Source: Acidimicrobiia bacterium
GTDB taxonomy: Bacteria; Actinomycetota; Acidimicrobiia; Spongiisociales; ZC4RG35
Assembly: GCA_965215185.1 (NCBI GenBank)
Contig: OZ244034.1
Location: 2,624,001-2,688,000, forward strand
DNA: 64,000 bases
Reading direction: 5' to 3'
Shown here: piece after piece, positions 24,374 to 36,774 of the stretch
How positions within the stretch are numbered: position 1 is the first letter of the stretch
Layout: each line of letters starts with the position of its first letter
Program-made: the position numbers and the translations under genes
Notes under the pieces: model-generated
Told to the model about the DNA's origin: nothing
Database searches by the model: none
What the model saw: the letters and a program-made list of their open reading frames with translations, nothing else

Positions 24374-25409
24374 CCTCGCGGAACTCGAAGGCTTTGATGA
24401 TCTCTTGCTCCGATGACCAGTTGCCGGTGATCAGAAGCCCGATGCGCTCACCAGGGATCGATTCTCCAAAGCGTTCCAGTGCCGCGATTGGTGAAGCTGC
24501 GGCACCCTCCAGCGCCATCCCTGTGCAGAAGAGTGCCAGCGCCATAGCTCGGTAAAGGTCATCTTCCTGGACGAGTGCGATCGTATCGAGGTACTCGATC
24601 ATCACTGCCAGGGCCAACTCTCCGGGACGCGTAGTAGCCAGGCCGCCAGCGAACGTCAGACACTCGGACTCGACTATCTCTCCACCGAGCCAGCTCTGGG
24701 TTGCTCCACTGGCTGCCGTCGATTGCACACCAATAATCCCGGTTTTTGATCGGCGAAGCTCGCAGGCCAGCAATGACCCTGCGATCAGATTGCCACCTCC
24801 GATGGGCGCGATAACAGTGTCCAGATCGGAGTCGGATTCGAGAATCTCCAAGAGCACTGTTGAAGCTCCTGCCATCAGGTCGCCACTTTCACCATCCTCA
24901 ATGTATGAAATGCCATTGCCCGCGATTCCAGCAGCGGCCTGTTGGGCTTGCCCGAGGTGTTCACCTTCGATGCGAATCTCGGCCCCGAGACCGCGCATCG
25001 CTTGGAGCTTCTCCTTAGCGGTGCCTTCCGGTGCATAGACCACTGTCTTGAGACCGTAAAGAGAGGCGGCGAACGCGACACCCTGTCCGTGATTGCCCGT
25101 CGAAGCTGTTACTACCGTGTGAGCTCCCGATTCCTCGGATATCCGACGGAGGGCAACGAGGGCTCCCCGGTGCTTGAACGAGCGGATGGGGGAAGCAAAC
25201 TCGAGCTTCATGTAGATCTGGCGACCGTAGCGAGCAGAAAGCGACTGTGATAGCACAAGGGGAGTGGGCCGCTGGTGACTGCCAATCACCATCTCGGCAA
25301 CTCTCAACTCTTCCGGCTGTGGAACCGGGGAGTCGGGCCACGTTCTGGAGATCGGCCGTCTGTGATAGGTACCAGGACCACGATTCTTCGATGACGGTCC
25401 CATGCTCAC
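24357..25409 (-). CDS. PLP-dependent threonine/serine dehydratase family
   Basis: SFKHRGA, STGNHGQG, PIGGGNL, TGN; start uncertain. Confidence 0.88.
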   Translation of the reverse strand: MSMGPSSKNRGPGTYHRRPISRTWPDSPVPQPEELRVAEMVIGSHQRPTPLVLSQSLSARYGRQIYMKLEFASPIRSFKHRGALVALRRISEESGAHTVVTASTGNHGQGVAFAASLYGLKTVVYAPEGTAKEKLQAMRGLGAEIRIEGEHLGQAQQAAAGIAGNGISYIEDGESGDLMAGASTVLLEILESDSDLDTVIAPIGGGNLIAGSLLACELRRSKTGIIGVQSTAASGATQSWLGGEIVESECLTFAGGLATTRPGELALAVMIEYLDTIALVQEDDLYRAMALALFCTGMALEGAAASPIAALERFGESIPGERIGLLITGNWSSEQEIIKAFEFREDANRD

Positions 25410-26632
25410 CGGCGCGTGGCGGCTAGGACGGACAGGACGTGGTCGATGTCGGCGGTGGTGTGGTCGGCGTTGACTTGGAGGCGGATTTCTTCGTGGCCTC
25501 TGGGTACTACGGGATAGGTGAGGCCGGTTGCCAGGACGCCACTGTTAAAGAGGGCCGTGACCATTCGGCGGGTCTGGTTGGTGTCGCGTAGCATGAGGGG
25601 GACGATGGGGTGCTCACCGGGTATGATCTGGTATCCCAGCGCTACCAGGTTGGACTCGAGCCGGCGAGTGAGGTGTCTCAGCTGGCCTAGGAGCGTCTGC
25701 CCTTCGGGACTGTCCAGTATTCGTAGGGCGGTAAGGGCGGCGCTTGCTTCGGCGGCGGTGATCGGGTTGGAGTAGATGTAGAAGGGGGAGGTCTCCCGCA
25801 GGAAACGGATGACCGTGCTTGCAGAGACCACGTATCCTCCGTTGACTGCCAGGGCCTTTCCCAGGGTGCCGATGAGTATGTCGGCGGGCGGGCTGCCCGT
25901 GTGTTCTTCGGTGCCCCGGCCGGTGGGGCCGAAGGCGCCCACTCCGTGCGAGTCGTCTACGACCACCACCACGTTTTCGGGGAAGCTGTGATCGTGGCGA
26001 CGGGCGATGTCCATGATCTGGTCCAGTGGAGCGTGGTCTCCGCGCATGGAGAAGATGCCGTCGGTCACGACTATCGCCCGTTTTGCCCGCCCGGCCGCCT
26101 CGGCAAGTTGATGATCAAGAGCCGCCATGTCCAGATGCGGGTAGACGGACTTGCTTAGAGGCCGGGCGAGGCGGATGGCGTTGATTATGGAGTTGTGGTT
26201 GAGTTCGTCGGAGATCACTGTGGTGGTCGGGTCGATGAGGGAAACCAGGGTTCCTAGCACGGCGGCGTAGGCGGAGGAGAAGATCATCCCTTCCTCTCGC
26301 CCGTGGAAGGCGGCCAAGCCATGCTCCAGTTTCACATGGGGAGTGTGGGTCCCCACGATGAACCGCACCCCTCCGGGTCCGGTTCCCATCGCCCGGGCGG
26401 TGACCTGTTGAGCCCGGATCACTTCGGGATGCAACGCCAACCCCAGGTAGGAGTTGGAGTTCATCCGGATGAAAGCACGGTTCCCGTGGCCCTCAAGCAA
26501 GTATCTGGGGCCTCGCTCCCTCTCGGGACCGACGACCTGTCTTACCACCAGTTCCCCGCCCTTGGCCATCCCCTGTTCATCAAGGCGGGTGACATGGCGG
26601 TCAAGTTCATCGATCAATCGGTCCAGCGGCAT
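25406..26632 (-). CDS. Glycine C-acetyltransferase / alpha-oxoamine synthase (Kbl-like)
   Basis: NSYLGL, DELNHNSII, DGIFSMRG, DDSHG, GTLGKA. Confidence 0.88.
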   Translation of the reverse strand: MPLDRLIDELDRHVTRLDEQGMAKGGELVVRQVVGPERERGPRYLLEGHGNRAFIRMNSNSYLGLALHPEVIRAQQVTARAMGTGPGGVRFIVGTHTPHVKLEHGLAAFHGREEGMIFSSAYAAVLGTLVSLIDPTTTVISDELNHNSIINAIRLARPLSKSVYPHLDMAALDHQLAEAAGRAKRAIVVTDGIFSMRGDHAPLDQIMDIARRHDHSFPENVVVVVDDSHGVGAFGPTGRGTEEHTGSPPADILIGTLGKALAVNGGYVVSASTVIRFLRETSPFYIYSNPITAAEASAALTALRILDSPEGQTLLGQLRHLTRRLESNLVALGYQIIPGEHPIVPLMLRDTNQTRRMVTALFNSGVLATGLTYPVVPRGHEEIRLQVNADHTTADIDHVLSVLAATRR

Positions 26633-26736
26633 TCAAAGCCTCGTGGTAGTAAACCCTTTCAAATGTTATAGGCGTTGGCCGAAAATTCCGGGCCTCCAAA
26701 AAACGTGTATCGCGCCTGTATCTTGGCTTCCGTGCC

Positions 26737-26842
26737 TGGGATTGTCTTCTCAGAAGCCCTGGGCGATGCACCATTTCATGACCGCGGCGGTGCGCTGTTT
26801 GACACGGTGGGCGGTTTCAGGTTCTGGTGCCAGATAGGGGTG
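26737..26842 (-). pseudogene. Internal fragment of a second P4-type integrase
   Basis: ETAHRVKQRTAAVMKWCIAQGF*EDNP, matching 28222-28325; in-frame stop. Confidence 0.85.
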
Positions 26843-27070
26843 GGAAACGGCTCTAACGCTCGGCCCAATAGGGCAACTGCTACCACTACGCGATGTCCTG
26901 GAAATCACAAGCCTCAAGAAATCGCAACTGTACCGGCTAATGGCAGCTGGGGAGTTCCCAAAACCGCCCAAGATAGGATTCCGAACAGTCCGCTGGACTC
27001 TCGATTCGATCCTGGCCTGGGTCGAGAATCTGCCAGAGGCAACTTACACCAGCCCACCAGAAGACGAGGA
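26841..27070 (+). pseudogene. AlpA-family HTH regulator / recombination directionality factor, start apparently lost
   Basis: LLPLRDVLEITSLKKSQLYRLMAAGEFPKPPKIGFRTVRWTLDSILAWV; no in-frame start upstream of the HTH; frame stays open to 27356. Confidence 0.72.
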
Positions 27071-27557
27071 ACCGACACCCCACGGGACGAGACCAATGGT
27101 GTCTAACCACACGCCAGCCGACCAAAACCAGCGCCCTCCAAACCGGATAGTGCCCACCTCCTGCAAGAGAGAAAGAACCTGCCCCCACCCGCACCGCTCC
27201 AGCACTGAAGTGCAGGGCGGCCTCTGTGTCCGGTCGTGTCACGTTAGTTGGCCGACTGGTGTCATTAGTGCCTTGCCTGTCGTTTTGCGACTCCCATACG
27301 GTTTGAAACATCATCAACACCGTGTTCATCTCCCCAATGGCTACTGCCCACTTTGACGGTTTGTCTTTTGTCGCTCTGATCATTTTGCCAAATTGAGTCG
27401 CCCCGGTTTTGTAGAGGGTTGGTTGTGAACAGCCCTGGGTGTCGAAGCTGTTAGGAAGAGTCGCCTTTTAGCGATCCCGATGACCCAACCTCTTTTGTTC
27501 CTTGACACAGCATCATCCTTGGGAGGCCGATTACCCGCGAGGGTGTTCCACGGCCTT

Positions 27558-28769
27558 CTACAACGTGCTACCAATCGAGCTGTCTGTCCCAATCGGTGCC
27601 ATGAAAAGGATTGAGGCTTCGCGGATGTTTAGGTAGCGGCTCCAGTTTTCCATCAGTTGGCGGCGTCTTTCCAGTAGGTCGGTTCGAGCGTAGGCTTTTT
27701 CTACAGCGTTTCGGATTTCGTGACCGAGGGCCCGTTCCGCGACTTCACGGCTAACACCGGTTTCTCCGCACCAGTCCCGAAACGAGCTTCTCATCCCGTG
27801 TGGCACACAACCCACATTGTTCTCTTTGCACAGTTTGCTCATAGTGGCGTTACTAGGCGGCCGTCCGGTAGGCGAGGGAAAAACCAGGCCATCCCCGCCG
27901 GACAGTTGGTGTGCGGTGTGGAGAACCGCCAGAGCCCCGCTGCTCAAAGGCACCCGGTGTATTTGCTGTGTTTTGGTGTGCTCGGCAGGGATTGTCCAGG
28001 TTGCTGTGGTGAGATCAATTTCTGTCCATGTGGCGTGTCTGACTTCACCGCTTCTGGTGGCGGTAAGGGTCAGGAATTTGAAAGCGGCGATCGTCGCCCA
28101 ATGGGCATCTGTTGTTTCGACGGTTCGAATGGCTGCGCCGACCTGGCTGTGGGGTAGGGCCTTCATGTGTTGGGGTCGTTGGGTGTTGGAACCTAGGGCG
28201 GCGGTGATACGGTCGTCGGCTGGGTTGTTCTCTCGGAACCCCTGGGCGATGCACCATTTCATCACCGCGGCGATCCGCTGTTTCACCCGGCGGGCCGTTT
28301 CGGGTTTTGGGTGCCATATGGGGGTGAGACAAGCCATGACGTTGGCGGTCGTGATTAGGTCCACCCGCCTTTTCCCAAGGTGAGGATAGGCATAGGTGTG
28401 GAGGGTTGACCGCCAGTGCTCTTCGGACCTGCCACCCGGTTTCCACTTGGCGGCGTGAAGCCGGATTACCTGTTCGGTCGCCTGGCGAAAGGTAGGTGCC
28501 TTGCGGGGGCGGGGGTTGCGGCCTTCTGCGATGGCTTGTCGGTTCCGGAGAGCCCGCCGGCGGGCTTCGGCGAGGGTGACTGCCGGGTAGCTACCCAGCC
28601 CCAGGTTGGTGTATCTGCCGTTGATCTGGTTTCGTTGCGCCCAGGTTTTGGAGAGTCGCCCCTGGATGTTGGTTGGTTTGACCAACAGGCTCAGTCCATG
28701 GCCGCCTCGGCCGTTGCCATAGCGTCCGGGTTGGGTCACTGTCCTAACGAAAGATGCTGTGAGTGTTGG
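27558..28769 (-). pseudogene. P4-like tyrosine integrase; first four codons (30040-30051) displaced by IS110
   Basis: Arm-binding N-domain (GRYGNGRGGHGLSLLV..LGLGSYPAVTLAEAR), R (TRSGE), HGMR, LGH, Y (AYAR). Confidence 0.9.
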
Positions 28770-28776
28770 TGAGCTC

Positions 28777-29805
28777 CTATGTCAAAATCGGGGTTGGTTT
28801 TGGTGGTTGGAGGTGGGTCCAGATGCGGTCTGAGATTCGGCGTTTGAGGACGCGTATGGCGTCTCTGTGGGTCTTTCCTCGGGTGATGAGTTTCTGGTAG
28901 TAGCGGCGGCCTTCGCTGTCTGCGCGGGCGATCTGGGTCAAAGCGGCGGTGTGGATGGCCCGGTTTAGTTGGCGGTTCCCACCCCGGTTGAGTCGATGGC
29001 GTACTACTCGTCCGCTGCTGGCTTCGATGGGTGCGGTGCCGTTGGCCATGGCGAACTTGTCTTTGGTCGCATAGCGGTGTGGGTTGCCCACCTCCGAAAG
29101 GATGGTGGCAGCGACCAGTACACCCACCCCGTGAATGTCTAGTAGACGGGTTTCGGATTGGTCGACCAGTGTTTTGATCTCGGCGGTGAGTTGTTTGATC
29201 TCGGTGTCCAGTTGTCGCAGTCTTCGGATGCGTTGTTTGGCTACCCGCCCGTGGGGGGTGGTGTCCCGCCAACACAGTTTCATGGCCTGGTCGAGGGCTT
29301 TTCGGGTGGTGAGCCGGGGAATGTTCTGGTGGTAGCCTGGTCGGAGTTTCCCCAGGTCGGCGTGGAGCCGGTTGGCCTGGGCGGTGCGGTCTTCTACCAG
29401 TTCACGGCGGTATGAGACCAGCACACGGAGGTCTTCGGTGTCCTCCCAAAACGTCGGCGGGGCGAGCGTGTTGTCTCGGAGAGCGACCCTGGCGATCACC
29501 CAAGCGTCGACCTGGTCGGTTTTGGTCTGGGTACGGCCCCGGCGCCGGACCTGGGCGGTCAGCTGCGGTGGAACCTCCCGGATGTCCAGACCAGCGGCCA
29601 TAGCGGCGACCGCGGCTGGGCGGCCGAACGTGCCGGACCCCTCGACCGCTACCCTGGCGGCGTTGGTGGTGTGAGCCCAATCTATGAGTTGACGGTGACC
29701 AGTAGGGGTGTTAGCGATGGTCCGGTACTCCAGGGCGGTGCCCAGGTGGTCTACCAAACAGGCAGAAAGGGTATCCTTGTGCGAGTCGATCCCGATAACG
29801 AACAT
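28777..29805 (-). CDS. IS110-family transposase / bridge recombinase
   Basis: DEDD RuvC (GIDSHK, VEG, KTDQVDA), PIEASSG catalytic Ser, GNRQLNRA; GGAGG RBS. Confidence 0.96.
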   Translation of the reverse strand: MFVIGIDSHKDTLSACLVDHLGTALEYRTIANTPTGHRQLIDWAHTTNAARVAVEGSGTFGRPAAVAAMAAGLDIREVPPQLTAQVRRRGRTQTKTDQVDAWVIARVALRDNTLAPPTFWEDTEDLRVLVSYRRELVEDRTAQANRLHADLGKLRPGYHQNIPRLTTRKALDQAMKLCWRDTTPHGRVAKQRIRRLRQLDTEIKQLTAEIKTLVDQSETRLLDIHGVGVLVAATILSEVGNPHRYATKDKFAMANGTAPIEASSGRVVRHRLNRGGNRQLNRAIHTAALTQIARADSEGRRYYQKLITRGKTHRDAIRVLKRRISDRIWTHLQPPKPTPILT

Positions 29806-29819
29806 GGTTCAATCCTCCA

Positions 29820-30020
29820 ATTTCGGGGGTTTGCGGGAGCGGCAGAAGGCTCGGCGAAGCGCATCCATGCGTCGAAACAACACCCCCACAGGGGGCAGAT
29901 ACAAGTCACGCTCCTATCAAGCGACAACACCGAGCGGGCAACCGGTGGGGAGACACTCACTAACTAAGCCACCACAATGGGGCAGGGTCGTTTGGAGTCA
30001 TCCCCACCGGCACTGCCACA
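29820..30020 (-). ncRNA. Putative IS110 bridge RNA
   Basis: Guides AAACGACC and GTTAGTG inside a 10-bp stem match the target flanks; ATAGGAGC and ACGCATG match the element ends; RNA boundaries approximate. Confidence 0.82.
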
Positions 30021-30158
30021 CCCCAACATATAACACGCATGGTCGTTTCACCCCTGCTTCTCCCTTTCGGCTAACCCAGAGAAGGTCCGGTACCGCCGAT
30101 TACTCCGATGGGTTACTTCGATAGTTATCAACATTGCAATGCGATTAGGTGCAACCCT

Positions 30159-30252
30159 ATGGGACTGTCTGGAACTACCTGGGACACCAATACCCCGTTG
30201 ACCTGGGCAAATATGAACCACATGGGACACTATGCGCCTATATAGGACACTA
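30159..30252 (+). repeat. GGGACAC-type direct repeats (candidate integrase arm sites)
   Basis: ATGGGACTG 30159, CTGGGACACCA 30179, ATGGGACACTA 30222, ATAGGACACTA 30242. Confidence 0.5.
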
Positions 30253-30262
30253 AACCCGCGGA

Positions 30263-30774
30263 CGTCCAGGTAAGGCAACCCTTCCTGCCAGAAGTTCTCG
30301 TTGCGTACGATTTCAACCTGCTGGTTGCGTTCCCATTCCACGAACTTGAAGGGACCGGTTCCGATCGGCGTCTCGTTCAGGTCGATGTCGGGATCCCGCG
30401 GCGAGATGTACACATCCACCAGGGTGCTGGCCAGGATGCGGTCGGGCTCGCCGAGTCGGATCTCCACGGTCATGTCATCGACCGCTACGGTCCCGACTAC
30501 CCGGGTCAGGAGAGAAGATGTCCGTCCAGACTCAGGCTCCTGCGCCCTGCCCATGGATACCACCACGTCTTCGGCGCCAAAGGGAGAACCGTCGTGGAAG
30601 GTCACGCCTTCCCGGAGGTTAAAGGTCCAGGTGGTGGCCAGCGAGGGAGACGGTCCAGGTGGTGGCCAGCGAGGGAACTATCTCATAGGTCTCCAGGTCG
30701 AACTCCACCAGGGTGTCATACATGTTGGTGATGATGTTGCGGTCGTTAGTCGAACCGAATCGGTTGGGATGCAG
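30263..30774 (-). pseudogene. N-proximal fragment of the split SBP gene
   Basis: LHPNRFGSTNDRNIITNMYDTLVEF...FHDGS...GTGPFKF...QEGLPYLD; frameshift at 30624-30676; signal peptide missing. Confidence 0.9.
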
Positions 30775-31395
30775 TACCTACCAGTCGCTGCAGGTCATCG
30801 CCGACGCCCAAGCAGACGGCGCCGAACCGTTTGATTTGATGATCTGCGACGTAGCCCATCGAACCACCGGGGTTCATAAGAAAGCCCGGATCACGGTGTC
30901 TTCGTGGTTGTTGCCCCACGACCAGACGATTCTCCAAGCCGACCGGCGGCTGTACATGACCGCCACGCCTCGGCTTTACAGCGCCAATGTCAAAGAAAAA
31001 GCCAAAGAGCGGCAGGCGGCTATCTATTCGATGGACAACGAAGCCACCTACGGGCCTGAGATTTACAAGATGAGCTTCAAAAAAGCCGTAGACGACGGTT
31101 TCTTGTCGGACTATGAAGTAGCCGTCGTCGCGGTGTCTGACAGTCTGTTCGCCAATCTGGCGGGCGACTTTGTCTAGGAGCATGAAGAAACCGGGGTGAA
31201 CGTCGAGGATGTGGTGAAACTCCTCGGGTGTTGGGACGCTCTGGCCGATCCCGACCACCCGTGGCACGAATGGTCGGGTCACCGGGCAGGTCAACACTCC
31301 CCACGCCGCCCAGCGGGCCATCGCCTTCTCCAACACCATCAAGAGTTCGATGAATTTGGAGAAGTGGTGGCCGGACATCATCAGCCGACTAGGGC
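30773..31395 (+). pseudogene. Fragment of an SF2 helicase of Type ISP restriction-modification type
   Basis: STYQS, ICDVAHRTTG (degenerate DEAH), MTATPRLY, LSDY, RAIAFSNTIKSS; stop at 31175 and frameshift near 31255. Confidence 0.75.
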
Positions 31396-31620
31396 GGCTG
31401 GGCGCTGGTGGTGGGGGAAGGCGAGATCATCGGGTCCAAGCACGAATCGATCGAGGGACCCAACGGAATGTTCCGCTTCTCCTCGGGTCCGGCGCCCCAG
31501 GCCTTCCAGCGATTCTGCAACGCCGGCGCCACCCACCACAGCGTGCTGACCCCCGGCCACCACCTCCGGACGCTTCAACTGATGGCGGAGTGGATGGGCT
31601 TCGAGGTCCGGGCGGTCTGA
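31393..31620 (+). pseudogene. C-terminal fragment of an L-arabinose/L-fucose isomerase-family protein
   Basis: LVVGEGE...GATHHSVLTPGH...LMAEWMG C-terminal signature; no N-terminus. Confidence 0.6.
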
Positions 31621-31756
31621 TACCGGCCTCGGCCCGGGGATTCTCCCCGCCAATTAACTCTCTCTCCCACCGGAGCGCCGGAGGGTCTGTGCTCTACCAT
31701 TACCTCATAGGGCTTTCTTGCAGAAGTAGGGGCTGAGTGGTCCCGGAACAGGAGAA

Positions 31757-32884
31757 GTGATGCGCATAGCCAAAGTAACTCCAATCTCGGTCGCCTATCC
31801 CGAGCCCAACGACTCGGGCGCCACCCGGCACCTCACCTTTTGCCGGATCGAGACCACCGATGGGACCCTGGGCTGGGGAGAGTCGGTGACCATGTGGCCG
31901 GAGGCGTGCCGAGCAACCGAGCAGGTCATCTTAGGGATGGGGGAACTCATTCTGGGACGGGACGTGGCTGACAACATCGCCATCTGGCGGGAGTTGCGCA
32001 ATCACGCCTGGTGGTATGGATATCGTGGCGGGATTTCTCACTTCGCCCTCTCGGCGATCGACCTGGCCCTGTGGGACCTGAAGGGAAAGGACCTGGGCCA
32101 GTCGGTTCTCAGGATGCTGGGCGGCGCCGCCCGAGAGTCGCTGCCGGCCATTGCCAGCACCCACGCCTTTCTAACCATGGACGAGGAGATCGATAAACAC
32201 GGCCGGTGGGTGCAGGAAGACGGTTACCGGGGGGTGAAGATCGGATTGGGCAAGGCGGGGATAACCCGCCTGGGTTTCGATGCCAAACGGGACATCGAAT
32301 TCATGCGCCGGCTCCGGGAGGCGGTGGGTCCCGATGCCTGGATCATGCTGGACCGCGGTGTCAAGTGCACCTGGGACCTGGAACACGCCATCCGACTGAT
32401 CCGCAAATTCGAGGAGTACGGGTTGCGGTGGATGGAGGAGCCGTTCGAGCCCCGTGAGTTCATCAACTACAAGAAACTCCGAGGCGCCGTGAACACCATG
32501 CTGGCGTGGGGAGAGCGGGAGTGGGACGAATACGGCTACCGCGAGGTGATCGGCACCGGCACCGCCGACGTGGTGGGAGTCGACCCCGGTCGCGTCGGGG
32601 GGATCACCGGCGCCCTGCGGATCATTCGCCTGGTGGAAGACGCAGGAGTGTGGTTCAACGCCCATGCGTGGAGCGGCGCACCGGTGACCGCCGCCAGCCT
32701 GGCGCTGTCGTTTACCACGAACCGATGCCTGCTGTTCGAGTTCAAGCCCATCGAGAATCCGATGCAGCATGAACTGGTCACCAACCCCTTCGTCCATGAT
32801 CGGGGCACCGTCGGCATCCCCCCGGAGCGACCCGGTCTGGGCATCGACGTGCAGGAGAGCGTCCTCCAGAAGTACAAGTTGTGA
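31757..32884 (+). CDS. Mandelate racemase/MLE family enzyme
   Basis: GWGE, IDLALWDLKGK, KIG, WMEEP, GERE, PGLGID; AGGAG RBS. Confidence 0.93.
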   Translation: MMRIAKVTPISVAYPEPNDSGATRHLTFCRIETTDGTLGWGESVTMWPEACRATEQVILGMGELILGRDVADNIAIWRELRNHAWWYGYRGGISHFALSAIDLALWDLKGKDLGQSVLRMLGGAARESLPAIASTHAFLTMDEEIDKHGRWVQEDGYRGVKIGLGKAGITRLGFDAKRDIEFMRRLREAVGPDAWIMLDRGVKCTWDLEHAIRLIRKFEEYGLRWMEEPFEPREFINYKKLRGAVNTMLAWGEREWDEYGYREVIGTGTADVVGVDPGRVGGITGALRIIRLVEDAGVWFNAHAWSGAPVTAASLALSFTTNRCLLFEFKPIENPMQHELVTNPFVHDRGTVGIPPERPGLGIDVQESVLQKYKL

Positions 32885-32932
32885 TCATCGATCGCTCCGG
32901 TAGTCTCTCCGTGACAGGGAAACCCCTGTCCT

Positions 32933-33790
32933 TTAACGGTCGGTGCGGTAGGGGTTGAGGAGGTCGGTGAGGGTGTCGCCCAGGAGGGTGAAGACCAGCA
33001 CCGTTATGAATATGGCGCTTCCCGCTCCCAACGCCAGGTAGGGATTGGTGGAGACCAGGGTCTTTCCGGTGAGGAGCATGGCGCCCCAGGACGGGGCGGG
33101 AGGCTGAGCGCCCAGACCCAGGAAACTGAGGGCGGCCTCGGTTAGCACCGCGGTGGCGAAGGTGAGGGTGAACTGCACCATGAGGATCGAGGTGAGGTTG
33201 GGCAGGAGCGACCGCTGCATCAGATAAACGTGACTGGCGCCCAATGCTCGGCCGGCTGTGATGAATTCACTCTCTTTGAGGGAGAGGGCCATTCCTCGCA
33301 CGAGACGGGCGAAGCGGGGGATCTGCACTATCCCGATGGCGATGATGGTATTCCGCAGGTTGGTTCCCAACACCGCCACCATGGCCATGGCCAGGATGAT
33401 GGGAGGGAAAGCCAGCAGGCCGTCGGTGGTGCGCATCATTATGGTGTCGGTGAGCTTGCCGAAGTACCCGCTGACAACGCCCATCGGCACCCCGAATACC
33501 ACCGCGATGGCGGTGGAGGCAAAGCCCACGTACAGTGAGACGCGTGATCCGTGGATGATCCGGCTGAAGATGTCCCTTCCTATCTCGTCGGTGCCCAGCC
33601 AGAACTGTGCGGTAGGCAACTCGAAGGGATAGGCGACCACTTCGGTGGCGCCGTAAGGCGCCAGGAGGTCGGCAAACACCGCCATCAGCACCAGCAGCGC
33701 CACCATGCTGAGCGTGAAGAGGTGAAGGGGATTGCGGGTTATCCTCCTCCAGATCTTGCGTCTCTCCGAGAACATTGCGGCAGAGGTCAT
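32933..33790 (-). CDS. ABC permease (DppC-like), copy 2
   Basis: Paralog of 17-874. Confidence 0.92.
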   Translation of the reverse strand: MTSAAMFSERRKIWRRITRNPLHLFTLSMVALLVLMAVFADLLAPYGATEVVAYPFELPTAQFWLGTDEIGRDIFSRIIHGSRVSLYVGFASTAIAVVFGVPMGVVSGYFGKLTDTIMMRTTDGLLAFPPIILAMAMVAVLGTNLRNTIIAIGIVQIPRFARLVRGMALSLKESEFITAGRALGASHVYLMQRSLLPNLTSILMVQFTLTFATAVLTEAALSFLGLGAQPPAPSWGAMLLTGKTLVSTNPYLALGAGSAIFITVLVFTLLGDTLTDLLNPYRTDR

Positions 33791-33812
33791 ATCCGGGTTG
33801 GTCCTTGTGCGC

Positions 33813-34756
<944 letters not shown>

Positions 34757-34760
<4 letters not shown>

Positions 34761-35767
34761 GATCGAGCGCCGGAGTGGTTTTCGGCGCCCGGGTAATGGC
34801 AGGCCACCAAGCTGTCGGCGACAAGCGCCAATGGGGGGTCCTGTTCGACGCAGAGTTGGTCGCCTCGCCAGCACCGGGTTCTGAACCGGCAGCCGGAGGG
34901 CGGATCGAGGGGATTGGGCAGGTCGCCAGCGAGAATTATCCGCTCCTGGGTCTGTCGACCCTGGGCGGCGGAGATGTCGGGGATCGCCGACAGGAGGGCG
35001 ATCGTGTAGGGATGCTGGGGGGAGTTGAAAACCGCGTCCCGGGTGCCTTCTTCCACGATGCGGCCGAGGTACATGACCGCCACGCGATCGGAGACCTGGC
35101 CCACCACGGAGAGATCGTGGGCGATGAACAGATACGCCAGGCCGAGTTCGGTTTGCAGGTCTTCCAGCAAGTTGAGAATCTGGGCCTGGATGGAGACGTC
35201 CAGCGCCGACACCGGTTCGTCCAGCACCAGAAGAGAGGGCTCCAGAGCCAGGGCTCGGGCGATGGCGATCCGCTGTCGCTGCCCGCCGGAGAACTCGTGG
35301 GGGAACCGGCGCAGGGAGTCGGGTGGCAACTGAACCAGGGAGAGCAGTTCCGGGATCTTTTGCCGGGCCACCGCCCGGGAGATGCCATGGATGCGGAAGG
35401 GCTCGTACAGGATCTGCCGGACTCTGAACCGGGGATTGAGGGAGGCGTAGGGATCCTGGAAGACGATCTGCATCTCCTGGCGCAACGGACGCATCTGTTG
35501 GTGGTTGTAGTGGGTGATGTCCTGTCCCGCAAAGTTGACCGTTCCCGCCGCGGGTTCCAGCAGTCGGATGATGGTCCTCCCCAGGGTGGACTTGCCGCAT
35601 CCCGACTCTCCCACCAGCCCCAGAGTCTCACCGGGCTTGATGGACAGGGTGACGTCCTCCACCGCCACCAGGGTGGTGGCCTTCTGGGCGCCGCTGCGGC
35701 GGATGTGGTAACTGGTGGTGATGTCCCGGATATCGAGAATCGGTCTCTGGGCGGTGTCGGTGTTCAT
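34757..35767 (-). CDS. ABC ATP-binding subunit (DppF-like), copy 2
   Basis: MNTDTAQRP start with ATGA overlap; Walker A/B and signature motifs. Confidence 0.92.
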
Positions 35768-36774
35768 GTTGCTCTCTCGGTGAGCCAGGATGCCGCTTCC
35801 TCGGTGAAGTGACAGGCTGCCTGCTGGTCGGTCCCCACCTCCATCAGCCGCGGGGAGTCGGATCGGCAGGCCGAACGCTGCGCTCCGATGGCGCACCGGG
35901 GATGGAAGGGGCACCCCGGGGGGACGTTGGCCATGTCGGGAGGCTGGCCGGGAATGGAGTAGAGTTTCGTCCTCCTTTGCGTGATCGAAGGAATGGAAGC
36001 CAACAGTCCGATCGTGTACGGGTGCCGTGGCCGGGAGAAGATGTCGCCGATGCGCCCTTCCTCCACGATCCGACCGGCGTACATCACTATCACCCGGTCG
36101 GCGATCTGGGAGACCAGTCCCAGGTCGTGGGTGATCAGGATGGAAGCCGCCCCCGTCTCCTCGCGGGCCGCCTTGAGAGTCTCGATCACCTGCGCCTGGA
36201 TGGTCACGTCCAAGGCCGTGGTGGGCTCGTCGGCGATCAGCAGCTTGGGCCGGTTGGCCATGGCCATGGCGATCATGGCGCGCTGGCGCATTCCGCCCGA
36301 ATACTCGTGGGGAAACTGGTTGTAGCGTCGTTCCGGTTGCGGGATCCCCACCATGTCCAGCAATTCGATGCCACGCCGTCTGTGGTTTGACTTCGATTCG
36401 GAAGGATTGTGGGTCCACAGAGCTTCCCGCAGTTGTTCCCCCACCTTGATAACCGGGTTCAGCGAGGTCATGGGATCCTGGAACACCATGGAGATCTCCT
36501 GTCCCCGGATCGAGCGGAGCGCTTCCGTGGACAGGGGCAGCAAGTCCTGCCCTTCGAAGAGAGCCCTTCCACCGGTTATCTCCCCGGGGGGTTTGGGGAT
36601 GAGCCCCAGGATGCTCAGCACCGTCACCGTCTTGCCGGATCCGGACTCGCCGACTATTCCGAGGGTCTCCCCGGTGTTGAGGGAGAAACTCACGCCATTG
36701 ACGGCATTGATCACCTGATCAGGGGTCTTGAACCGGACCGAAAGGTTTTCGACGGTTAGCAACGGAATTGGCAT
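35764..36774 (-). CDS. ABC ATP-binding subunit (DppD-like), copy 2
   Basis: GESGSGKT, YSGGMRQR. Confidence 0.93.
   Translation of the reverse strand: MPIPLLTVENLSVRFKTPDQVINAVNGVSFSLNTGETLGIVGESGSGKTVTVLSILGLIPKPPGEITGGRALFEGQDLLPLSTEALRSIRGQEISMVFQDPMTSLNPVIKVGEQLREALWTHNPSESKSNHRRRGIELLDMVGIPQPERRYNQFPHEYSGGMRQRAMIAMAMANRPKLLIADEPTTALDVTIQAQVIETLKAAREETGAASILITHDLGLVSQIADRVIVMYAGRIVEEGRIGDIFSRPRHPYTIGLLASIPSITQRRTKLYSIPGQPPDMANVPPGCPFHPRCAIGAQRSACRSDSPRLMEVGTDQQAACHFTEEAASWLTERAT

Follow-up and report, generated by a model that had tools for sequence, protein, structure and literature searches.

An IS110-family insertion sequence at the start of a P4-type integrase gene of an Acidimicrobiia bacterium: probable near-cognate insertion by a derived bridge-RNA guide

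Introduction

A tyrosine integrase gene in a 64,000-nt stretch of the genome of an Acidimicrobiia bacterium (GenBank assembly GCA_965215185.1, contig OZ244034.1, positions 2,624,001 to 2,688,000; this whole stretch is called the window) is split after its fourth codon by an insertion sequence (IS) of the IS110 family. The locus raises the question of why the IS stands at that base: is its RNA guide tuned to integrase genes, the IS acting as a reversible off-switch, as an earlier note on this DNA had proposed, or is the integrase start a near match to some other target?

The explanation which we favor, at a probability of about 0.72 for the reading as a whole, is a guided near-cognate insertion. 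The lineage would normally insert into one arm of a palindromic repeat of ~65 nt, and the present variant would carry a derived guide (left AAACGACCC, right GUUAG-UG). The integrase start GTG AAA CGA C/CA/C CAA C (slashes set off the CA core) would be close enough to this guide provided that the left pairing is slid by one base, and two independent insertions would have occurred there by recombination at the CA core. Each would knock its integrase out by cutting off the promoter, the ribosome-binding site and the first four codons.

Insertion at the integrase start

Features of the locus are given in window coordinates and lie on the minus strand; G000 is the bacterium's own genome (3.12 Mb, one contig) and the other G labels are genomes of the genus. 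The minus strand reads a putative ribosome-binding motif AAAGGGAG at 30067-30060, similar GGGAG/GGGAA sequences being present ahead of the start codons of paralogues, and then GTG AAA CGA CCA at 30051-30040. The left end of the IS, TGCGTG... (TGCGTGTTATAT), begins at 30039 and its right end, ...GGAGCT (ATAGGAGCT), stops at 28772, followed by CA at 28771-28770 and, from 28769, by CCA ACA CTC ACA GCA TCT TTC GTT AGG ACA GTG. The severed integrase start thus runs from the GTG to the core (30042..30051), the left CA core or crossover dinucleotide (30040..30041) supplies the last two bases of codon 4, and the interior of the IS (1,268 bp, 28772..30039, ends set against copy C, described below, and the empty paralogue) is bounded by the right CA core (28770..28771). 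The remainder of the integrase, from codon 5 to the stop (27558..28769), is open and holds all three domains.

When the insert is taken out, GTG-AAA-CGA-CCA and CCA-ACA-CTC meet in frame. An uninterrupted form was found in a paralogue at G000 896985-896965 (minus strand), which reads VRRPPTLTASFVR, that is GTG AGA CGA CCA CCA ACA CTC. The occupied and empty sites differ by exactly the IS plus CA; based on this comparison the insert is 1,270 bp with one CA core (28770-30039), the 2-bp CA being assignable to either side. CA flanks the insert on both sides, with no longer target duplication. Sequence and paralogue agree with the earlier note that an IS110 follows codon 4 and that removal of the IS and one CA gives an in-frame join. 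The empty-site 15-mer which it had written down is present in the paralogue, which differs from its junction one base further upstream (AGA vs AAA). Its interval, 28767-30051, brackets the IS but takes in a few flanking bases.

Contigs from other public runs (X5, X7 and X8) join 28769 straight to 30040, skipping 1,270 bases of which 2 fit both sides. As these contigs differ at 5-8 further positions, they represent paralogous or orthologous empty sites.

Translation of the joined frame from 28772 gave Arm-DNA-bind_3 (PF13356), Phage_int_M (PF22022) and Phage_integrase (PF00589), in that order, a domain content which identifies a P4-type tyrosine integrase. The frame is open from 28769 to the stop at 27558 and is 88-94% identical to its paralogues. 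Intact paralogues begin VKRPSTL, MNRPKTL, VKRPKTL, VKRPNIL and VKRPKTL, and homologues in other genomes VKRPSTL, MNRPKTL, MKRPKTL and LKRPVTL. The family start is therefore [VML][KN]RPxTL, in accord with the KRPxTL expected in the earlier note.

Copies of the IS and their independence

Three copies of the IS are present in the genome, identical at 1271/1271 positions over 28769-30039. Copy A is that of the window, copy B (G000 984058-985328) stands at the identical base in another, paralogous integrase, and copy C (G000 1647191-1648461), set in an arm of a palindromic repeat, has an Abi_C-domain gene on one side and a nucleotidyltransferase gene on the other. Between A and B the flanking sequences have diverged by 9-12% (208/229 identical upstream, 1037/1185 downstream), the first differences being ~20 bases away from the IS on the upstream side and ~26 bases away on the downstream side. 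Since the IS copies are identical while these flanks have diverged, the IS would have arrived after the integrases diverged; most simply, each of the two genes received its own recent insertion once they had become different. Identical copies at the same base of two diverged paralogues bear out the proposal that insertion at the integrase start is guided and repeatable. The idea of integrases as the target holds for two of the three copies of this genome, but not for copy C or for 14/14 insertions of relatives, all of which lie elsewhere.

The recombinase and its bridge RNA

The recombinase (transposase) gene of the IS codes for 342 aa (28777..29805). DEDD_Tnp_IS110 (PF01548) matched residues 4-152 with E = 6.2e-31 (profile positions 1-151 of 155), and Transposase_20 (PF02371) matched the C-terminus with E = 1.8e-20 (residues 219-304). 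The protein also matched the IS621 recombinase of PDB 8wt6 across both domains (E = 9e-20), and in that alignment its SSG stands opposite ESG of IS621; the serine of this motif we take to be the catalytic one.

The non-coding left end (234 nt, 29806..30039) is predicted to encode the bridge RNA. It folded with a minimum free energy of -99.1 kcal/mol (z = -2.87 vs shuffles), and RNAalifold on 11 relatives gave two stem-loops with compensatory changes at 7/41 pairs. From the consensus fold these are a predicted target-binding stem-loop at about 30010-29942 and a predicted donor-binding stem-loop at about 29935-29849. In the alignment of relatives the scaffold is constant and a few guide blocks are variable. 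A scan of 28600-30300 against Rfam, which is without a bridge-RNA model, returned no bridge-RNA family and only a chance serC match (E = 0.69).

The left donor guide AUAGGAGC (29910..29917) has the same sense as the right end of the IS, ATAGGAGC-T-CA, and the right donor guide ACGCAUGG (29865..29872) is the complement of CA+TGCGT at the left end. Among the 11 aligned relatives the former is nearly invariant, 1/8 positions (G at position 129) differing in one relative, and in the latter 5/8 positions (ACGCA) are invariant and the sixth differs in 2/11. For IS621, the available part of the original description gives left guides in the same sense as the top strand, complementary right guides, and a core lying within the pairings (PMC11208160); the bridge RNA of the present IS follows that layout. 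The earlier assignment to an IS110-family element with a bridge RNA is borne out by the DEDD and Transposase_20 domains, by the two-loop left end, and by guides which match both the flanks and the IS ends. The element would be an active-looking IS110-family IS of the IS621 type, with a DEDD/serine recombinase and a left-end bridge RNA.

Candidate halves of a circle-junction promoter were read from the sequence by analogy with IS621: TTGACA (-35) at the right end (28780..28785) and TATATG (-10) at the left end (30027..30032). An excised circle would place TTGACA 17 nt ahead of TATATG, with 10/12 matches to consensus, and a promoter scan of the linear arrangement found no sigma-70-like site. By this analogy the promoter would arise only in the excised circle.

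Target guides and the usual target of the lineage

The left target guide of this IS is the 9-nt block AAACGACCC (29985..29993), variable and set between constant scaffold bases; the right target guide, GUUAG plus UG (29958..29964), is the complement of CA + CTAAC. Their pairing rules were taken from relatives. Some match to the IS was present in each of the other 16 genomes of the genus, and the full-length relatives (84-94% identity) were 10 copies in G002, G003, G008 and G011. Partial and contig-end copies (G007, G009, G012, G014, G016 and others) were counted only where the left flank was present, which added four (L020, L041, L047 and L048) and gave 14 insertions in relatives. The distant copies G001a, G001b and G004 entered the alignment, the fold and the tree, and stood outside the register table.

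In relatives the 9-nt block after scaffold GGCUCC corresponds to 8 flank bases and the first core base. The left guide fitted 9/9 at 4 sites (G008a, G003a, G003b and G003c) and 6-8/9 at 11 more, including copy C and the four partial copies; at all 15 of these non-integrase sites the best fit was at register 0. The 7-nt block before scaffold AGUGC is the complement of CA and five right-flank bases. It reads GGUAG+UG in relatives and is complementary to a CA+CTACC right flank, with 7/7 at 3 sites and 6/7 at 3. For the 11 full-length insertions outside integrases (the 10 of relatives, and copy C) the right guide fitted 7/7 at four and 6/7 at three, and only 4-5/7 at the four G003 and G002c sites.

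From its own guide blocks the predicted ideal target of this IS is AAACGACC/CA/CTAAC. The site of copy C, AAATGACC/CA/CTAAC, fits 8/9 on the left and 7/7 on the right, and is the right arm of a diverged member of the ~65-nt palindromic repeat. Standard arms of this repeat number 15 at about nine loci of the genome, both arms carrying the usual target of the lineage (for example at G000 1658787-1658832, 1961856-1961901, 1964886-1964931, 2002669-2002714, 1644042 and 1644356). Several relatives sit in the same repeat family, and the repeat locus at G000 about 1669269 is the empty counterpart of the G011 insertion. None of the 15 standard arms holds a copy of this IS; those of them that were covered by the scan for near-fitting sites are three mismatches from the ideal. 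These fits point to a palindromic-repeat-targeting IS110 lineage, like several known ones.

An 8-base complement between the stretch GUGAGUGU of the RNA and ACACTCAC in the integrase was considered as an extended right guide and rejected, GUGAGUGU being constant scaffold in all relatives. Its sole variant base is stem-compensated (columns 53-113: A-U here, G-C in 9/10 others, G-U in one).

Fit and occupancy of the integrase site

At the integrase site, GAAACGAC/CA/CCAAC, 8 contiguous bases of the left guide match once the guide is slid by one base (AAACGACC), and the right guide fits 6/7. The slip would not be avoided by shifting the crossover, since the junctions demand exchange within CA. 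If the core C is taken as given, simple arithmetic predicts that 8 bases in a row will match by chance at a one-base offset at ~1 in 16,000 sites per offset; we regard the match of the guide to the integrase site as not due to chance.

Occupancy was scanned over the genome with the IS removed in silico, accepting in the usual register left >=8/9 with right >=4/5 and in the slid register left 8/8 with right >=4/5. Exactly one site fits in the usual register, site C, and it is occupied. Three fit in the slid register, namely the occupied integrase sites A and B and one free site near G000 776750, and the IS thus occupies 3/4 of the best-fitting sites in 3.1 Mb. All five sites one base off the 14-base integrase-type site are empty, three of them being other integrase starts. 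The free site near G000 776750 (plus strand; slid 8/8, right 4/5) is the sole empty site as good as the integrase sites, and a candidate next landing site.

The guide appears to be derived. In a tree of recombinase DNA rooted on the distant copies, this IS is nested, sister to G002a/G011, then to G002b, then to G008, and the guides of all of these aim at the repeat. Two guide changes are unique to this IS: position 4 of the left guide is C in place of U, and the right guide has U in place of G. Both give a better fit to the integrase site and the left-guide change worsens the fit to site C. In our view the guide has drifted and can use the integrase start productively as a near-cognate site, the start not being a long-standing dedicated target; the two events would have been RNA-guided, with tolerance of a one-base slip.

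Several points weigh against this reading. In the usual register the left guide matches the integrase site at only 4/9 positions. A literature search found no report of bridge recombinases tolerating a one-base slip, the supplementary target lists of Durrant 2024 and Xie 2026 lying outside its reach. In the inner hairpin of its target loop the IS lacks 13 nt, a deletion peculiar to this variant. Exact-pattern scans for an IS with the same guide in collections of genome contigs and metagenome contigs found none, and as a result the site preference of the same-guide IS rests on three insertions. With 2/3 copies in integrases, the integrase could be the real preferred target, in which case the rule for the ideal site taken from relatives would be invalid for this variant.

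A palindrome partner was sought at the integrase site and none was found. If a stem-loop gate exists in the lineage, the integrase insertions would have bypassed it.

Consequence for the integrase

Through the insertion the body of the integrase gene is cut off from its promoter, its ribosome-binding motif and codons 1-4. Translation from the next in-frame start, a GTG at 28739, would leave out the first strand of the arm-binding domain, and the AGGA ahead of this GTG is poorly spaced. With the upstream signals and codons 1-4 severed and the next start poor, loss of function of the copy A integrase is likely. A guided near-cognate knock-out is well supported.

Scarless removal in silico restores the frame of copy A, while copy B is still frameshifted, near residue 270. 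The IS-free paralogue (G000 895816-896985; L008 1015-1542), 94% identical, has a stop at codon 176, which is W in other paralogues. Decay is thus visible here rather than switching. As the IS points in the same direction as the integrase, transcripts from the integrase promoter would enter the bridge RNA and the recombinase gene, and read-through expression from that promoter would be possible.

Alternative explanations

It has been proposed that the guide was selected for the integrase start, the IS parasitising and immobilising integrating elements, and that scarless excision re-enables the integrase as a reversible switch. We consider this unlikely, the off-switch being possible on paper only. 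Several observations would suit it: the same base of two paralogous integrases holds 2/3 copies, 8 contiguous left-guide bases match the site, and copy A is otherwise an open integrase with all domains. The two unique substitutions improve the integrase fit, and to this extent the proposed tuning to the 5' end of the gene found support, but the register-0 fit is 4/9 vs 8/9 at site C and the match depends on the unusual one-base slip. Nor do the relatives speak for selection, since 0/14 of their insertions split an integrase start. The 21-base site at <=2 mismatches occurs at three places in this genome and one in G002, i.e. in 2/17 genomes of the genus, and such a recombinase is absent within 3 kb of 8/8 homologous integrase loci in other genomes. 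As to the switch, the IS is placed for transcription of the bridge RNA from the integrase promoter. In the available part of a study of IS621, excision occurs, needs read-through transcription into the left end, and leaves junctions detected by PCR, but is less efficient than insertion (PMC13626964). Two preprints, in the parts available, describe IS110 elements as mainly copying out, with the donor copy staying in place; one of them also reports 'half-match' off-target insertion at sites fitting one arm only. The decay of the family, in the copy B frameshift and the nonsense codon of the IS-free paralogue, stands against switching as well. So, weakly, does run X2 (from organism A, a label given to the four best matches to the stretch), in which no empty-site contig was found, as contigs cannot show rare variants.

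A tblastn search of the integrase against 50 loci found integrase-family genes, unsplit, 50-400 bp from three copies of relatives (L038, L016 and L019, in G002 and G003), by chance or through a loose association of repeat targets with integrating elements.

Alternatively, a single ancestral insertion may have been duplicated, the interrupted integrase travelling with its element and the IS copies being homogenised later by gene conversion. Gene conversion between IS copies is a known process and counts in favor of this history, as does a genome rich in duplicated integrase modules and mosaic segments. Against it stand the 1271/1271 identity of the IS beside flanks 9-12% diverged, the need for conversion tracts to end nearly exactly at the IS ends in both copies, and copy C, which is equally identical at an unrelated site. 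A single old insertion with IS-limited gene conversion is possible but strained, and we hold it to be quite unlikely.

Placement by chance or at a structural hotspot, with no RNA guidance, would suit the 4/9 left-guide fit in the usual register, but is very improbable given that the same base was struck twice, that an 8-base contiguous match is so rare, and that 3/4 of the best-fitting sites are occupied.

Surroundings of the integrase gene

The integrase family has >10 copies or fragments in the genome, many of them within 859-985 kb beside a tRNA-Met gene. The segment G000 859000-985000, just past tRNA-Met (858714-858789), is dense with integrase paralogues and fragments and with other IS110-family genes, and may be a tandem pile-up of integrating elements.

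Upstream of the integrase, a region common to paralogous elements (30052..30266) was delimited by blastn against the own genome and by comparing where similarity ends in A, B and p897. Only the integrase and ~226 bp upstream are common to A, B and the empty paralogue, similarity stopping near 30266-30273. Within it, at 30150-30262, several direct copies of the motif TAGTGTCC / TGGTGTCC are kept in paralogues; possibly these are candidate arm-type binding sites of the integrase. Gene debris follows at 30267-31177, with a fragment of an SBP_bac_5 solute-binding protein (profile positions 28-149 of 368) and then, on the other strand, the end of a ResIII-type helicase, a weak match of 21.7 bits against a Pfam cut-off of 22.5. 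No partner attachment repeat for a putative island was found. ARAGORN gave no tRNA in the window or in loci L001, L002 and L008, and the element-boundary sequence matches no tRNA gene of the genome. An AlpA-like excisionase assignment for the open reading frame at 26940-27356 was dropped, having no Pfam support.

The surroundings of the integrase are a mosaic of fragments. The segment 25839-27480 (1,642 bp) is 99.7% identical to G000 1271186-1272827 and is a recent segmental duplication. Its contents are a partial aminotransferase-class gene, a fragment of an integrase and an open reading frame without known identity, and its other copy adjoins a 5'-truncated integrase. At 25408-26737 an aminotransferase class I/II gene (25406-26632) has a second copy, 97% identical, at G000 2742738-2744067. 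The ~4.6 kb at 31383-35972 match G000 2622451-2627057, an interval that overlaps the first part of the window, at 81% identity; here a cluster of transport or enolase-superfamily genes was duplicated long ago.

Relation to known systems and significance

Some IS110/IS1111 members target other mobile elements, such as IS4321/IS5075 in the inverted repeats of the Tn21 family, IS1383 in the ends of IS1384, and IS1111-attC elements. Their targets are terminal repeats of the host element or attC, whereas here the target is the start of the host element's integrase gene, which looks like a near-cognate site and not the main one of the lineage. IS492, in epsG of Pseudoalteromonas atlantica, is an IS110-family element whose precise excision restores the gene in a reversible phase variation; by comparison the present element is known from sequence alone and its sister loci are decayed.

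The closest likeness is to IS621 and the IS110 group (Durrant et al. 2024, PMC11208160; Hiraizumi et al. 2024 and 2026). As far as the available parts of these papers go, the systems share DEDD and serine domains, a long left end with a two-loop RNA, the senses of the guides, a 2-bp core common to donor and target, promoter halves meeting in the circle, and palindromic repeats as natural targets. Unlike IS621, the element has a CA core in place of CT and a distant recombinase (E = 9e-20), and 2/3 of its copies lie in a protein-coding start region, where a fit of the left guide requires a one-base slip. In having one arm of a palindromic repeat as its usual target, with a stem-loop therefore just 5' of the usual insertion point, the lineage resembles ISPpu10 and other IS110 elements which target repetitive extragenic palindromic sequences (Na et al. 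2026 preprint, in the part available); the integrase site, at which no palindrome partner was found, sets it apart from that type. A literature search on IS110 elements interrupting island integrase genes found, among the papers listed, none on the topic by title or abstract start; one of them deals with IS elements in integron cassette arrays.

The mechanism, guided insertion by an IS110 bridge recombinase, is known, and the case would be a fairly ordinary but well documented site-specific IS knock-out. What would set it apart is that an integrase start was used twice, that the guide is derived and that its left part pairs with a slip of one base. A bolder extension, which we regard as doubtful, is that the bridge RNA drifted from the palindromic repeat to the first codons of the integrase with its pairing slid by one base, and that the IS, by locking integrating elements, gains the integrase promoter; signals which normally set the host element in motion would then act on the IS, either mobilising it or causing its excision and thereby re-arming the integrase.

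The locus offers a natural, internally controlled case of bridge-RNA targeting, in which one guide accounts for three insertions among the four best sites in 3.1 Mb. It suggests that a left guide is workable when slid by one base, which bears on the prediction of off-targets for genome editors based on bridge recombinases. It is also a case in which one mobile element would silence the integrases of another, and if the insertion were reversible or coupled to the integrase promoter, it would represent a novel way of controlling how integrating elements move.

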